IMG/VR virus record: IMGVR_UViG_3300020473_000015
Strand: one strand, 5' to 3'
Source: a virus
Length of the DNA stretch: 64,000 bases
In this document: positions 8-40,567 of the stretch, one piece after another
Layout of the letters: the number at the start of each line of letters is the position of its first letter
How positions within the stretch are numbered: the stretch's first letter is position 1
The notes under the pieces: generated by a model
What the model was told of the DNA's origin: nothing
Seen by the model: only the letters and a program-made list of their open reading frames with translations
Database searches by the model: none
Translations under genes and position numbers: made by a program

Positions 8-847
8 ATGAAGGGTCCCAAACTTGATGTATCTGGGGCGGCCCCTTCGCTGTGTTTTGCTTTTAATACGTCAGGAGCGCTCAATCGTGAAACTCCTGGA
101 GATTGGCTATCAGCTAGCGCCATCGATCTTGACGGTTCTAACGAATATCTTAACATGAGTGATCATGGCGATTTTGATTTTGAATACGATGACACATTTT
201 CATTATCGGCCTGGGTGAAAACTACAAACACTGGGGACGAAACAATAGTAAGTAAAATGGGGTCTGCAAATTCCTATCGAGGCTGGGATTTTAGATCTTC
301 TAGCGGTCGACCAAGATTCCGACTACAAAACACCAATGGATCGAAGGCGATAGATGTTCAGAGTGATGATACAGATGATCAATTAAATGACTCCCTTAGT
401 CATCATGTGGTAGTTACTTATGACGGCTCAACTAACGCATCCGGTGCTAAATTATATATTGATGGTAATGTCAAAAGCAAAACCACACACACGGATAATC
501 TTGGAAATGATACAACAGTGAATGCAATTGATGTAAATGTTGGACGCGCAGATTTTGGAAATTATTTTGATGGTTATATATCACATGTATCAGTTTGGAA
601 TAAAGAATTAACTACTGCAGATATTACAACTATTTATAATAGTGGAAAACCTGGAAATTTGTCATCGAGTATGGCAGCTTCATCATCTAATTTAATTGCA
701 TGGTGGAAGTGCGGCGATGGAATTAGTGGCTCTACCGCAGACAGTTCAGATAGCAGCGATTCAGACGCTCGTATATATGATATGGGAACTGGAAGTCATC
801 ATCTGACACCAGAGAATACAGAGATTTATGATATTCGTAAGATTTAG
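8..847 (+). CDS. LamG/concanavalin-A-like domain virion protein (probably 5'-truncated by the window edge)
   Basis: LamG-type motifs FSLSAWVK, HHVVVTYDG, KLYIDG, FDGYISHVSVWNKELT; frame is open back to position 2. Confidence 0.75.
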   Translation: MKGPKLDVSGAAPSLCFAFNTSGALNRETPGDWLSASAIDLDGSNEYLNMSDHGDFDFEYDDTFSLSAWVKTTNTGDETIVSKMGSANSYRGWDFRSSSGRPRFRLQNTNGSKAIDVQSDDTDDQLNDSLSHHVVVTYDGSTNASGAKLYIDGNVKSKTTHTDNLGNDTTVNAIDVNVGRADFGNYFDGYISHVSVWNKELTTADITTIYNSGKPGNLSSSMAASSSNLIAWWKCGDGISGSTADSSDSSDSDARIYDMGTGSHHLTPENTEIYDIRKI

Positions 848-3251: not shown

Positions 3252-4837
3252 TGGGATACAAATTAACAAAGAAGGATATCTTAAAAGAGGTATTGCAGTG
3301 CGGTAAAGATACGCGCTATTTTATACGAAATTACGCTAAAATTCCACATCCAGGCCATGGATTAATCCCTTTTAAAACATACGATTATCAAGATAATTTG
3401 TTGGATGAGTTTAATGATTATCGTTTTACTGTTATCTTGAAAGCTCGACAGTTAGGTATATCTACAATTGTTGCTGCTTATATTGCATGGCTTCTTTTGT
3501 TCCATCGCGATAAGAATGTCCTTGTCGTTGCAACTAAATTAAACACAGCAGCAAACTTAGTGAGAAAAGTTAAGGGAATAATCAAGCACTTACCGGATTG
3601 GCTAAGAATAGCTAGTATCGACATTGATAATAAGAACTCTTTTGAATTAAGTAACGGATCTCAAGTTAAGGCGTCTTCCACTTCTGGAGATGCTGGTCGC
3701 TCTGAGGCATTATCTTTATTAGTTATAGATGAGGCAGCGCACATTGACAACTTAACAGAATTGTGGACAGGCCTTTACCCTACAATTTCTACTGGTGGTC
3801 GCTGTATTTCACTCTCAACTCCAAATGGTGTTGGTGATTGGTTCCATGACACTTACATAAAAGCAGAAGCAGGGCAAAATGAATTCTATCCAATAAAATT
3901 AAATTGGGATGTACACCCAGATAGAGATCAAGAATGGTTTGAAACAGAAACTAAAAATATGAGCAAGAGACAGATTGCCCAAGAATACCAATGTAATTTT
4001 AATACTTCAGGTGAAACTGTTATTGACGGCGATGACATTCAACTCTTAAAGGCTAACATTGCTGACCCAAAATACAGAACTGGAGTTGATAGGAATTATT
4101 GGATTTGGGAAGAGCATCAGCCTGAAAATACCTACCTTTTAGTGGCAGATGTTGCTCGTGGAGATGGCGCAGATTCAAGCACATTCCATGTCTTTAAACT
4201 AGAAACTATGGAAATCATTGCAGAATATCAAGGAAAGGTCACACCAGACTTATTCTCTGATATAATTTTTAATGCTGGTCGAGAGTATGGAAATGCGATG
4301 GTTGTTGTAGAAAATAATAGTGTTGGCTTTGCAGTATTAGATAAATTGAAGGACAAAGCTTATCCTAATCTTTATCATTCTATAAAGTCTTCTCACGATT
4401 ATATTGACCAATATCAGGCTGAAACACACTCTTCTGCAATTGCTGGATTTACTACTTCTTTAAAAACTAGGCCTCTCATTGTCGCCAAGTTTGAAGAATA
4501 TATAAGAAATAAAATGTTAACTATTTATTCTAAAAGGCTAATTAATGAGTTAGACACTTTTATATGGAAAAATGGAAAACCAGAGGCTCAAAGAGGTTAT
4601 AATGACGATTTAATTATGGCTTGCGCAATTGGTTGTTGGGTACGTGACACGGTACTTATTGAAAATAAAAGAGATATGGAGTATAAAAAAGCATTTTTAA
4701 ACTGTATAATGACTAATAAGACTCATATAGACTCTAGAATACCGGGAATGCAAAAGCCTAGACAAACAGAGTTGTTTGAAAAGTCCATTGAAGAGAAAAA
4801 GAAAACGAAAGAATTTCTTTGGTTATTAAAAGGATAA
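3251..4837 (+). CDS. terL: terminase large subunit (T4 gp17-like)
   Basis: Walker A-like LKARQLGIST, Walker B LLVIDEAAHI, motif III STPNG, nuclease motif LVADVARGDGADSS, C-terminal DDLIMA. Confidence 0.95.
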   Translation: MGYKLTKKDILKEVLQCGKDTRYFIRNYAKIPHPGHGLIPFKTYDYQDNLLDEFNDYRFTVILKARQLGISTIVAAYIAWLLLFHRDKNVLVVATKLNTAANLVRKVKGIIKHLPDWLRIASIDIDNKNSFELSNGSQVKASSTSGDAGRSEALSLLVIDEAAHIDNLTELWTGLYPTISTGGRCISLSTPNGVGDWFHDTYIKAEAGQNEFYPIKLNWDVHPDRDQEWFETETKNMSKRQIAQEYQCNFNTSGETVIDGDDIQLLKANIADPKYRTGVDRNYWIWEEHQPENTYLLVADVARGDGADSSTFHVFKLETMEIIAEYQGKVTPDLFSDIIFNAGREYGNAMVVVENNSVGFAVLDKLKDKAYPNLYHSIKSSHDYIDQYQAETHSSAIAGFTTSLKTRPLIVAKFEEYIRNKMLTIYSKRLINELDTFIWKNGKPEAQRGYNDDLIMACAIGCWVRDTVLIENKRDMEYKKAFLNCIMTNKTHIDSRIPGMQKPRQTELFEKSIEEKKKTKEFLWLLKG

Positions 4838-4842
4838 GATAA

Positions 4843-6855
4843 ATGGATCCAAAAAGTATAAAAAGCACCAAAAATCCTAAGAATCCAGATTCAAATTTAT
4901 ATAGAAGATTAACTAAATTATTTTCTGGACCCCTGATCAACTATCGTTCTCAAAATACGAGACAATTAAGACGAAGAAGATTAGATAAGTACGCGAAAAC
5001 ATTTAAAGATGTCGCTGGTCAAAAGTTTGAAAGGATTGGTTATAATCCTTTTGATAACTTCTCTGCCTTTATGATGGGCACTCAGTCTAGATTACAAAGA
5101 TACGCTGATTTTGATCAAATGGAATACACACCAGAAATTGCTTCGGCTCTAGACATCTACGCAGATGAAATGACTACCCACACAGGAATAAAGAAGATAC
5201 TTGATATAGATTGTCATGATGAAGAGATAAAAGGAATCTTAGATACTTTATTTTTTAATGTTTTAAACATTGAATTTAATTTGTTTGGTTGGTGCCGAAC
5301 GATGTGTAAATACGGAGACTTTTATCTCTATCTAGATATTGATGCAGATATGGGTATCAAGCAAGTTATTGGACTTCCAACTGATCAAGTAGAAAGAGTT
5401 GAGGGTGAAGATAAAACAAACCCCAATTATGTACAATACCAGTGGAATTCTGGTGGAGTGACTTTTGAAAATTGGCAAATGGGCCATTTTAGAGTTCTTG
5501 GTAATGATAAGTTTGCCCCATATGGAACTTCTGTTCTAGATTCAGCCAGAAGAATTTGGAGACAACTTATTCTTCTAGAAGATGCAATGATGGCATATAG
5601 AATTGTTAGAGCACCAGAAAGAAGAGTGTTTAAGATTGATGTTGGTAATATTCCACCACAAGATATTGAACAATATATGCAACGTGTTATTACTTCCATG
5701 AAGCGCAATCAAGTTGTTGATGCTGACACTGGAAGAGTCGACTTAAGATATAATCCAATGAGCGTAGAGGAAGATTATTTCATTCCTGTGCGCGGTGGCG
5801 TAGGAACAGAGATTCAATCTTTACCTGGGGGGACTTATACTGGCGATATCGACGATGTTAAATACCTGAGAGACAAGTTGTTTTCCGCATTGAAAGTACC
5901 AGCCTCTTATTTGTCACGTGCTGAAGGTGGAGACGAAGATAAAGCGACGTTAGCTCAAAAAGACATTAGATTCGCTAGAACAATTCAAAGACTTCAAAGA
6001 TCAGTTACAACTGAGTTAGAAAAAATTGGTATTATACATCTTTATACACTGGGCTATAGAGGTGATGATCTTTTATCTTTCAAGATTAAATTAAATAATC
6101 CGTCCAAAATTTCTGAACTTCAAGAGTTGGAGCATTGGAATACTAAATTTAGCGTTGCAGCACAAGCAACAGAAGGGTTCTTTAGCAAGAGGTGGATTGC
6201 AAGAAATCTATTTGACCTATCAGAAGAGGAATTCTTGAGAAACCAACGCGAACTTTATTATGATAAATATTTTGCTCAGTCTATAGAAATGTTAGGCCAA
6301 GATGCCATGGCCGCAGGAGGAGCCGCAGGTGGAGCAATGGGCGCTTTAGGTGGCGAAGAAATGGCTGGTGGCGAAGATATGGGAATGGGCCCAGAAGATC
6401 TTGGCGGTGGTGAAGATATGACTGCACCAATGGAAGAAGCGCCACCAACAACTGAGGCTGGGGATGAAGATACTGCGTTGTTAGCCGCACCAGGAAAGAG
6501 AGATGATGATCATGCGTGGGTAAAAGCCAAAGTTAAGAAAAATGCTTTCGGCGCCGTAGAAAAAACTAAAAGCGCAAAATCGAAAGGATGGTATGAACCA
6601 GTGACCACAGACAAGCGCCAAAGCGGAGCAAGAAAGCGAAACATGAAAGCGAAAGATGCACACGAATTTGCTACGTTACCGAAAAGGCAATTGAAAATGA
6701 ATTTGCCTGACGGTGCAGATGAATTGCTTGGTCTAGGAAAAGGTATTTATGAGTCAAAAGAGACTAATTACAATGATGAAGAGCGAAAGCTGTTTGAAGT
6801 AAGCCAAACAGTGAGAGATCTATTAAACGATTTGGAGCATAAAGATAATGCCTAA
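4843..6855 (+). CDS. portal protein (T4 gp20-like) with Gly/Met/acidic C-terminal extension
   Basis: EDAMMAYRIVRAPERRVFKIDVGN, EDYFIPVRGG, DVKYLRDKLFSALKVP are typical gp20 motifs; follows terL. Confidence 0.95.
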   Translation: MDPKSIKSTKNPKNPDSNLYRRLTKLFSGPLINYRSQNTRQLRRRRLDKYAKTFKDVAGQKFERIGYNPFDNFSAFMMGTQSRLQRYADFDQMEYTPEIASALDIYADEMTTHTGIKKILDIDCHDEEIKGILDTLFFNVLNIEFNLFGWCRTMCKYGDFYLYLDIDADMGIKQVIGLPTDQVERVEGEDKTNPNYVQYQWNSGGVTFENWQMGHFRVLGNDKFAPYGTSVLDSARRIWRQLILLEDAMMAYRIVRAPERRVFKIDVGNIPPQDIEQYMQRVITSMKRNQVVDADTGRVDLRYNPMSVEEDYFIPVRGGVGTEIQSLPGGTYTGDIDDVKYLRDKLFSALKVPASYLSRAEGGDEDKATLAQKDIRFARTIQRLQRSVTTELEKIGIIHLYTLGYRGDDLLSFKIKLNNPSKISELQELEHWNTKFSVAAQATEGFFSKRWIARNLFDLSEEEFLRNQRELYYDKYFAQSIEMLGQDAMAAGGAAGGAMGALGGEEMAGGEDMGMGPEDLGGGEDMTAPMEEAPPTTEAGDEDTALLAAPGKRDDDHAWVKAKVKKNAFGAVEKTKSAKSKGWYEPVTTDKRQSGARKRNMKAKDAHEFATLPKRQLKMNLPDGADELLGLGKGIYESKETNYNDEERKLFEVSQTVRDLLNDLEHKDNA

Positions 6856-39023: not shown

Positions 39024-39539
39024 ATGAATATATTTGCTATTGAAGGAACTGGTAATAATATTGATTGGGTTAAATCCGCTCAGTCACAAGATAATTATCG
39101 TGTAGTTAAGATGATTTTGGAATCTTGCCAGATGTTGTGCACAGTGCTCAATGAACAGGCAGGAGAACAAATTACACCTTATCGCTCTACACACAAACAT
39201 CATCCATCTACCAAGTGGGTTTGTAACTCATCAGCTAACTTTGAGGCTCTTGTTGAGCACACAATGGCGATGCTAGAAGAGTACACAGAGCGCTTTGGTA
39301 AAATACATAAATGTTTGTATGTGTTGGAAAAGTGTATGGATTTGTATGATCCGTCTCTTTTTCCCTCTAGCGAGCCAACACGATTGCCGTTAGCGATGCC
39401 TTATGAATTTCATTCTGACAATATTGTCGAATCTTATCGCAAATTTTATGCTTCAAAGCCGAGAATGCGCTATCCGAAAAATAAAATTCCGCAATGGTTT
39501 GTAAATTATCGCGGCGATAAAAAATACGATATTGTTTAA
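39024..39539 (+). CDS. pyrimidine dimer DNA glycosylase/endonuclease V-like protein
   Basis: MNIF..KMILESCQML..THKHHPSTKW..FGKIHK..PLAMP..VESYRKFY. Confidence 0.75.
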   Translation: MNIFAIEGTGNNIDWVKSAQSQDNYRVVKMILESCQMLCTVLNEQAGEQITPYRSTHKHHPSTKWVCNSSANFEALVEHTMAMLEEYTERFGKIHKCLYVLEKCMDLYDPSLFPSSEPTRLPLAMPYEFHSDNIVESYRKFYASKPRMRYPKNKIPQWFVNYRGDKKYDIV

Positions 39540-39545
39540 AAAGTC

Positions 39546-39574
39546 TTGACAATTATAAAAATTTAAGATAGAAT
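39546..39574 (+). promoter_or_regulatory. sigma70-type promoter TTGACA-N17-TAGAAT for the tRNA cluster
   Basis: read directly; 14 nt before tRNA-Leu. Confidence 0.75.
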
Positions 39575-39588
39575 GATTAAAATAAATT

Positions 39589-39672
39589 GGCCGAGTGGTG
39601 GAATGGTAGACACAACGGACTTAAAATCCGTTATCCGCAACGGGTGTGAGGGTTCGAATCCCTCTTCGGCTA
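39589..39672 (+). tRNA. tRNA-Leu(UAA), long variable arm, no encoded CCA
   Basis: acceptor GGCCGAG/TTCGGCT, anticodon arm ACGGA-CT TAA AA-TCCGT, T arm GAGGG-TTCGAAT-CCCTC. Confidence 0.93.
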
Positions 39673-39677
39673 CATAT

Positions 39678-39867
39678 ACCAGGGTAGCTCAGGTGGTCAG
39701 AGCGCCGTTAGTAGGAAGCCAAAGGTCCACACACGGAATCGCGTTGCAAGCGCACGGGGAATCGCCCCCACCGTAATTAGTGGCGATTGGGTCTGAGGTG
39801 GAAACACCCATGCAAGGTGGATCTATGTACGAAGCGGAGGTCGTTGGTTCAAATCCAACCCCTGGTA
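39678..39867 (+). ncRNA. tRNA-like RNA with a 123-nt structured domain in place of the 7-nt anticodon loop
   Basis: acceptor ACCAGGG/CCCTGGT+A, D arm GCTC-AGGTGGTCA-GAGC, stem CCGTT/AGCGG, variable AGGTC, T arm GTTGG-TTCAAAT-CCAAC; 39710-39832 sits where the loop should be. Confidence 0.8.
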
Positions 39868-39889: not shown

Positions 39890-40027
39890 ATGGAATTTTA
39901 TATTATTGCTTTGTTTGGTTGCGTCGGCGTTATTGGGTATGCATATCATATGATAAAGATGCAAAAAGAAATTGAAGTCTTAAATGATAGAATGGACGCT
40001 GAAATGCGAAGGTTCGAAGAAGAGTAA
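39890..40027 (+). CDS. 45-aa single-pass membrane protein (not in ORF track)
   Basis: perfect SD AAGGAGG; MEFYIIALFGCVGVIGYAYHMIKMQKEIEVLNDRMDAEMRRFEEE. Confidence 0.7.
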   Translation: MEFYIIALFGCVGVIGYAYHMIKMQKEIEVLNDRMDAEMRRFEEE

Positions 40028-40126: not shown

Positions 40127-40567
40127 ATGAAAGTTGGCGATTGTTGGGAGTGCAATGCGACGTCAGTCGAAATTCACCATCATCATCCAGTGCCTCGTTC
40201 TCGCGGCGGCACCAAAACCGTTCCGCTGTGTTTAGAATGTCACGCAAAGGCACATCATCGCAAAAAACGGATGGCTTCGTCTATATTGACGAAAGAGGGC
40301 CTTGCACGCGCCAAGAAACGCGGTGTTGCACTTGGCAACCCTAAAATTACTGAGGTTGGAGAAAAAGGACGAAACACGCAAAAGAAACAGGCCGTAGCTT
40401 ATGCAAACAAAATTGAACCAATGCTAAGAAATCTTCGTAAACAAGGAATGTCTTTCGCCAGCATTGCAAAAACATTCAATGAAACCGGCATTAGCACTCG
40501 TCGTGGTGGTAAATGGCACGCAAGTACTGTCAGAAACTACTTCAATAAATTAGAGAGAAGTGCATGA
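40127..40567 (+). CDS. HNH-like nuclease fused to a serine-recombinase C-terminal DNA-binding region
   Basis: CWEC..IHHHHPVPRSRGG..LCLECHAKAH, then ILTKEGLARAKKRGVALGNP..GMSFASIAKTFNETGISTRRGGKWHASTVRN. Confidence 0.7.
   Translation: MKVGDCWECNATSVEIHHHHPVPRSRGGTKTVPLCLECHAKAHHRKKRMASSILTKEGLARAKKRGVALGNPKITEVGEKGRNTQKKQAVAYANKIEPMLRNLRKQGMSFASIAKTFNETGISTRRGGKWHASTVRNYFNKLERSA

Follow-up and report, generated by a model that had tools for sequence, protein, structure and literature searches.

A structured, conserved RNA domain in place of the anticodon loop of a tRNA-like gene in large uncultured phages

Among the tRNA genes of an uncultured phage lies one that reads as a tRNA at both ends and carries a folded domain where the anticodon loop should be. 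Does this gene make a decoding tRNA once the domain has been removed, or does it make an RNA that keeps the domain and works through it? We followed up the question computationally in the window (the whole 64,000-nt stretch of IMG/VR record IMGVR_UViG_3300020473_000015 that was analyzed) and in relatives of the element. A first-pass annotation had left the choice between a new noncoding RNA and an unknown tRNA intron; its structured payload on a tRNA frame stands, and between its two options the evidence leans to an unspliced scaffold. The locus and the parts of the frame are as follows.

39546-39574, plus strand: sigma-70-type promoter-like site before tRNA-Leu and the element, a consensus match only
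39589-39673, plus strand: tRNA-Leu(taa), called by ARAGORN, 59.7 bits with the Rfam tRNA model, 4 nt upstream of the element
39678-39867, plus strand: the element, a tRNA frame with its insert
39678-39709, plus strand: 5' half of the frame, with acceptor strand 39678-84, D arm 39687-39703, nucleotide 26 and anticodon-stem strand 39705-09
39710-39827, plus strand: conserved insert of 118 nt (range in relatives, 109-120 nt), with 14 distinct homologues
39828-39832, plus strand: anticodon-like strand, UACGA here, between the last G of the insert and the 3' strand of the stem
39833-39867, plus strand: 3' half of the frame, with stem strand 39833-37, variable region 39838-42, T arm 39843-59, acceptor strand 39860-66 and discriminator 39867

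The window comes from a large, myovirus-like phage that encodes a tail sheath, PolIII alpha, DnaB, a class II RNR and a UvsX-like recombinase; no cultured phage is closely related to it (PolIII alpha identity is 31% at most). The position first described for the element, between two normal tRNAs behind a sigma-70 promoter, is borne out: tRNA-Leu(taa) precedes it, ARAGORN places tRNA-Met(cat) ~170 nt downstream, and the promoter-like site has TTGACA and TAGAAT across a 17-nt spacer, agreeing with the consensus at 11 of 12 positions. The element lies within tRNA clusters in the window and in the related genomes G002 and G012, and in contig L099 it has its own promoter-like site, which ends 3 nt upstream of it. 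Immediately before the promoter of the window is a gene for a 171-aa protein resembling DenV-type pyrimidine-dimer glycosylases (39024-39539, plus strand). Between the element and tRNA-Met is a 45-aa open reading frame (ORF) with a Shine-Dalgarno-like site (39890-40027, plus strand) and no Pfam match, and G002 has a small ORF at the equivalent position. Directly after tRNA-Met, a 146-aa ORF (40127-40567, plus strand) gives weak matches to HNH endonuclease and recombinase domains; the 99% identical record G001 does not have it, and its sequence diverges right after the tRNA. It probably represents a free-standing homing-endonuclease gene that inserted into the tRNA cluster, resembling SegB in that of phage T4. 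As for the tRNAs themselves, the canonical phage tRNAs of G002 and G012 all have U34 apart from Met(cat) (Leu taa, Arg tct, Ser tga, Thr tgt, Lys ttt and Gly tcc), a set that reads A-ending codons.

Diverged copies of the element were found by searching with the DenV-like neighbor protein, a handle that retrieved 69 related loci, by going through whole related records, and with DNA patterns run on IMG/VR and the JGI metagenomes. Altogether, 14 distinct versions occur in viral and metagenome contigs that stem from independent assemblies and from several samples and projects; they make up alignment A5. The carriers are large uncultured aquatic phages. Record G001 of IMG/VR holds a copy 99% identical to that of the window, and two complete relatives, G002 (190 kb) and G012 (284 kb), each have a single copy of the element. 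Other routes gave nothing more: blastn of the insert against 50,697 phage records produced no match, the flanks matching generic tRNAs only; a pattern scan of genome contigs returned 63 matches, all due to chance; and further patterns run on IMG/VR recovered only the same 7 contigs.

The tRNA frame can be read just as it was first annotated, with a 7-bp acceptor (39678-84/39860-66) followed by A at 39867, a D stem (39687-90/39700-03), a stem at 39705-09/39833-37, a 5-nt variable region, a T arm (39843-59) whose loop is standard, and no encoded CCA. All four stems of the cloverleaf are present and 91-100% paired in the 14 sequences, and eight of their pairs show changes on both sides: three in the acceptor, three in the T stem and two in the anticodon stem, across the insert. 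ARAGORN in intron mode, a check proposed with the first annotation, calls a tRNA at the element, though with poor geometry. With the Rfam tRNA model (RF00005; cut-off 29 bits), the L172 homologue reaches 36.1 bits with a 116-nt insertion, and the frame of the window is not reported at E ≤ 10. A continuous 7-nt anticodon loop with U33 and a purine at position 37 is missing from the gene, its loop being interrupted by 109-120 nt. What follows the insert is an anticodon-like strand that is 3-5 nt long and occurs in seven versions across the family, within which an A and a C are invariant. A valine-accepting tRNA mimic such as the TYMV TLS would present A35, C36 and A73 to ValRS; in this family, the A and C by the stem and G45 are invariant, but the discriminator is A in only 9 of 14 members and U in the other 5. 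The elbow varies too: GG is missing from the D loop of four members, three of which also lack C56 in the T loop. A variable elbow and an A/U discriminator speak against one fixed role in aminoacylation and decoding.

The insert was rightly described at the outset as GC-rich relative to the genome (0.56-0.59, compared to 0.39 for the window), whereas the pairings then drawn within it have not survived alignment. Its fold was derived by parsing the 14 sequences on invariant anchors and tallying pairs, and the tool count on A5 agrees; the minimum free energy fold of the single sequence is uninformative (z = -0.68). The elements of the predicted fold are listed here.

39711-39714 with 39823-26, plus strand: helix Px, adjoining the tRNA stem, 100% paired, with a G.U pair that becomes G-C in L172
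39718-39720 with 39797-99, plus strand: helix Pw
39724-39728 with 39789-93, plus strand: helix P2, 100% paired, with an outer pair that changes from G-C to A-U
39733-39736 with 39771-74, plus strand: helix Pa, paired in 14/14, with a pair that is A-U in 5 and C-G in 9
39741-39753, plus strand: optional hairpin Hb, present in 5/14 and replaced by 6 nt in 9/14
39755-39770 (39755-59 with 39766-70), plus strand: hairpin Hc, with covariation
39762-65 (loop of Hc) with 39783-86, plus strand: putative pseudoknot PK, four pairs, invariant in 14/14
39805-39819 (39805-08 with 39816-19), plus strand: hairpin Py, with a 7-nt loop, 100% paired

The overall fold is a three-way junction of Px, a Pw-P2 arm and Py, linked by short purine-rich strands, and the Pw-P2 arm ends in Pa, Hc and the pseudoknot; covariation supports P2, Pa, Hc and Py. 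Py has double-sided changes in three of its four pairs. In Hc, the first pair occurs as C-G, U-A or C.A and the second as G-C, G.U or A-U. Pair 39718/39799 of Pw is G.U in seven sequences, A.C in five and A-U in two; G.U and A.C have the same wobble shape, and the split between them cuts across both clades. Pa and Hc rest on the anchored parse because re-alignment with a covariance model misregisters clade 1 there. PK, a pseudoknot of the hairpin type, is predicted rather than proven because its pairs are invariant and variation is absent. As judged by reading, a GCA retained in the variable region might offer the Py loop a further pairing partner. Set against this fold, the closing helix first proposed (39723-30/39817-24) shows no double-sided change in the 14-sequence alignment and has four pairs broken by mismatches; it is incompatible with Py, and where Py clashes with the earlier pairings, the variable bases follow Py. 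The proposed GNRA hairpin at 39797-808 fares no better, its U-A pair being broken in 5 of 14 sequences, and the AATCGC/GCGATT pairing is only 53.6% paired in the same alignment.

Across the whole structure in A5, 97.9% of cells are paired and 12 pairs carry double-sided compensatory changes, values that no shuffle reaches; slid controls are at most 50% paired. About half of the insert columns are invariant, including long unpaired stretches. In L009 the insert is 95% identical compared to 87.5% overall, so that it is more conserved than the tRNA body and flanks, as expected of a functional moiety. Frame and insert are inherited together in all 14 versions. Exchange between lineages has occurred: the element of L108 (1029-1220) has the D loop and T arm of L092 (7074-7254) and the insert of L074 (1474-1663), including its 11 extra nucleotides, and is a recombinant between exon and insert lineages that arose by recombination or mobility.

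The element is a real, selected gene. Compensatory pairing, 14 versions and its single occurrence in each of two complete relatives rule out an assembly chimera or a decaying pseudogene, the two artifacts against which the first-pass annotation had warned. Rather than one chimeric contig, the same design is found in 14 distinct sequences from independent assemblies. Rather than intact relatives beside a decaying copy, there is covariation, and no uninterrupted version has been found: such an orthologue was sought in IMG/VR, in more than 60 related loci and elsewhere in the two complete genomes, and a pattern written for it returned 16 unrelated tRNAs. The Val(tac) tRNA of L035, considered as a candidate, has a different tRNA body. 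A dead tRNA gene without function at the RNA level, broken either by inserted selfish DNA or by a group I intron that has degenerated, would suit the sporadic distribution (three other complete relatives lack the element) and the homing-endonuclease-like gene nearby in the window. This explanation is nevertheless extremely improbable, being largely refuted by the covariation; conservation is also higher in the insert than in the flanks, phages of 190 and 284 kb have both retained the design, and there is no match to group I introns.

What kind of RNA, then, has been selected? The element fits no described RNA family or intron class. The Rfam search recommended at first annotation (release 15) gave no family for the insert at E ≤ 10 in any of the three members submitted, namely, the window, L172 and L099. 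The claimed misfit to tmRNA, group I introns and bulge-helix-bulge introns was upheld for each when tested. Group I introns of bacterial tRNA anticodon loops, known from tRNA-Leu UAA, fMet, Ile and Arg (e.g., the Azoarcus intron; PMC13168695), are, like the domain studied here, structured RNAs in the anticodon loop of a bacterial-type tRNA gene, with G as the last base and usually U before the insert. All 14 members have the terminal G, and the insert is preceded by U in 11 of them and by C in 3. Such introns are ~200 nt or more, whereas the insert is 109-120 nt, about half the size. Unlike them, the insert has no Intron_gpI match (E ≤ 10, three members) and lacks P3/P7 and P4-P6: its supported helices are nested, the sole pseudoknot being that between the Hc loop and the strand that follows. 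P1, P7 and a guide were sought by eye and with column-pair scans, and nothing held across all members. A candidate guide at 39797-801 pairs with the 5' exon in most members but fails in L172, and there is no common junction that restores the loop.

A bulge-helix-bulge intron, as known from archaea and eukaryotes, calls for two 3-nt bulges on opposite strands with a 4-bp helix between them; this geometry does not fit, as the 5' strand of the junction measures 1 (or 12) nt and the 3' strand 4-6 nt. The RtcB-type ligase it would need is missing from G002 and G012, and the tmRNA genes of relatives speak for bacterial hosts. In tmRNA, as in the element, a large, structured, pseudoknotted domain is attached to an acceptor and T arm of tRNA-like form. 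The element differs from tmRNA in having a full D stem and normal 7-bp acceptor ends, in lacking a tag reading frame, and in having C:G at position 3:70 in place of G3:U70; ARAGORN calls no tmRNA here, and the only trace in Rfam is a 5.8-bit fragment in L099. A match to YrlA, a bacterial Y RNA-like RNA, is noise: at 22.5 bits against a cut-off of 69, it runs from the T arm of tRNA-Leu into the D arm of the element.

Small ribozymes were considered as well. The insert might act as a ribozyme that cleaves itself, or be targeted by a host RNase, so that the RNA is cut without rejoining and the tRNA halves or a freed small RNA would be active. Its highly conserved unpaired core would suit this, and 39771-93 locally resembles the J4/2-P2 strand of the HDV ribozyme, which serves as a lead only. 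Possible resemblances to HDV-like, hairpin, hammerhead and ZTP-like RNAs are backed by neither Rfam nor topology. No HDV-family match appears in Rfam at E ≤ 10 in the window, L172 and L099, nor in the same three members any match to hammerhead, twister, pistol or hatchet ribozymes; the best score, for the hairpin ribozyme (RF00173), is noise at 11.8 bits against a cut-off of 65 (E = 8.4, L172 only). The helices supported by covariation are nested and lack the P1/P3/P1.1 arrangement of HDV-like ribozymes, and the 4-5 nt between P2 and Pa leave no room for P3 or the 3' strand of P1. Small ribozymes are known beside phage tRNAs: theta ribozymes, minimal HDV-like RNAs, are tied to phage tRNA maturation (PMC10879173). 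They are placed at the tRNA's 3' end and form a nested double pseudoknot, whereas the domain studied here lies inside the loop and has another topology. An RNA-library contig, described below, also crosses both junctions. We rate cutting without rejoining as quite improbable.

A more serious contender is a new kind of small tRNA intron, in which the 109-120-nt domain would either catalyze its own removal or come out through a ribozyme cut and the later action of a host ligase, and the exons would be joined to give a Val or Arg decoding tRNA. Covariation has kept the tRNA frame including the anticodon stem, and Px places the junctions opposite each other. A pyrimidine ahead of the insert and an invariant G at its end are as in a group I-like intron, many unpaired bases are invariant, which is typical of ribozyme cores, and the exchange seen in L108 could reflect mobility. 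The complete genomes G002 and G012 have no Val tRNA elsewhere, and a Val(UAC) product would fit their U34 set. Removal of the conserved block from the L172 element leaves a textbook loop with U33 and the anticodon UAC, in the very member that passes the Rfam tRNA cut-off. The same rule gives six further members a canonical 7-nt loop of the Arg(ACG) type, with the stem shortened to 3-4 bp, and gives L074 an ACG with G at position 33.

The junction itself argues against removal. Five excision rules were tried across the 14 members and the products run through ARAGORN, and none yields a 7-nt loop with U33 in all of them; a uniform splice junction is lacking. The 116-nt excision between GTA repeats put forward by the first-pass annotation makes a Val(UAC) loop in just 4 of 14. 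Members of the 9-length class and those of the 10-length class, to which the window belongs, need different rules, yet both classes are functional, since compensatory exon changes are kept in both. L074 and L108 have 11 extra nucleotides on the 5' side of the junction; together with the 3-5-nt strand on the 3' side, these additions indicate that the junction tolerates length change on both strands. Such changes suit a linker and not a decoding anticodon loop. Several further points count against an intron: no intron-less allele was found in IMG/VR, Rfam gives no match to a self-splicing or self-cleaving class, the guide pairing fails in L172, and elbow and discriminator are variable. With regard to ligation, RtcB is absent from both G002 and G012; T4-type RNA ligase 1 is absent from the complete 190-kb G002, while G012 encodes a homologue.

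In an aquatic metatranscriptome, a 163-nt contig of depth 2 spans 39701-39862 and includes the insert. Coverage is lacking over the genes on either side, and the contig could be a precursor or DNA carry-over, so that we take it as a weak hint that the insert is retained. A joint skipping the insert was seen in none of four RNA runs, two of which (X2 and X4) cover generic tRNA parts only, and missing coverage in itself carries no weight. We regard the intron as a tentative alternative, possible but doubtful. A narrower version, in which the domain is a new class of small catalytic, self-splicing intron, is improbable; here Px would align the junctions, and the joining of the exons would be performed or prepared by the terminal G, which is invariant, together with conserved bases at the junctions.

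The reading we prefer, at about an even chance of being right, is that the gene makes a stable, tRNA-scaffolded RNA of which the insert is the working part. From the frame, fold and conservation observed in the alignment, we infer how such an RNA would be processed, that it would be stable and that it would stay unspliced. The product would be one RNA of ~190 nt plus an added CCA, with the insert kept. The tRNA-shaped part (acceptor, D and T arms and an "anticodon" stem of 4-5 bp) would serve as a handle, by which host tRNA-end enzymes could cut the RNA out of the phage tRNA transcript and which would confer CCA addition, stability and the protection enjoyed by tRNAs. The insert folds into a compact domain in which a three-way junction bears a second hairpin and a long arm with the hairpin-type pseudoknot at its end; this domain would act as the working part, probably as a binding site for a protein or small molecule. 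The short strand of A, C and purine beside it may pass for the 3' side of an anticodon loop of the Val or Arg type, and such mimicry would address some tRNA-binding enzyme.

Engineered tRNA scaffolds for recombinant RNA, in which the anticodon arm is swapped for a cargo RNA, share this architecture and presumably its logic, with the tRNA body giving processing and stability and the cargo taking the place of the anticodon loop. Those scaffolds are man-made; the element, with its conserved cargo, would be their counterpart in nature. Should the RNA remain whole, it is a natural version of the device that engineers use to stabilize RNA in bacteria and would be a new class of phage noncoding RNA, whose cargo can be sought as a binder, decoy or sponge. 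It may also explain old puzzles such as the RNAs of the T4 tRNA cluster. There, RNAC and RNAD (species 1 and 2) are stable small RNAs whose role is unknown (PMC3014915), which gives the scaffold reading a precedent. By analogy, they would be the closest functional counterparts of the element. Encoded at NC_000866 70908-71171, they are small RNAs within a phage tRNA cluster, as the element would be, and RNAC has a T-arm-like hairpin near its 3' end; neither has sequence similarity to the element, and RNAC, unlike it, lacks a complete cloverleaf bearing an insert in the anticodon loop.

The closest published observation is that of "enigmatic," highly conserved introns in tRNA genes of Lak megaphages, which belong to no Rfam class (Devoto et al. 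2019, PMC6784885). Both they and the insert studied here are unclassified, highly conserved inserts in phage tRNA genes. Lak phages are gut megaphages of Prevotella, and the tRNAs concerned are others (Tyr and Thr are named). Some Lak introns also have intron-less alleles that define the excision point, unlike the element. As the Lak introns are likewise unexplained, the phenomenon may be general in large phages. Were the element to be spliced, it would be a new, very small class of intron or ribozyme in bacterial viruses; if it spliced itself, no smaller self-splicing RNA would be known, and it would be the first class of that kind to be added in decades. Covariation now defines the fold of this compact family.

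The surroundings of the element differ among relatives: a neighboring protein was sought across eight contexts, and none is common to all. In the 284-kb phage (L172), the element is flanked by genes for a PP-loop ATPase (3416-4033, minus strand; PF01171, a family that includes the tRNA-modifying enzyme TilS) and a NUDIX protein (4963-5361, minus strand). In L072 the element is followed by a 4HBT thioesterase gene (91-540, minus strand), of which L172 has a homologue at a distance of 2.6-3 kb from its element. Each of the two complete genomes has a small cupin gene (Cupin_2, 42-43 bits) in this region, 1 kb away from the element in G002 (G002:C1:134758-135276, minus strand) and 3.6 kb away in G012 (G012:C1:244111-244449, minus strand); tblastn found no homologue in the window or in other element-bearing loci, and we do not regard the gene as belonging to the system. 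A tmRNA is also called in G002, but its tag is odd, and this may be a false call. Relatives L011 (861-1196), L013 (1250-1569) and G012 (G012:C1:231895-232258) carry tmRNA genes with tags that end in ALAA or LAA, which points to bacteria as the hosts.
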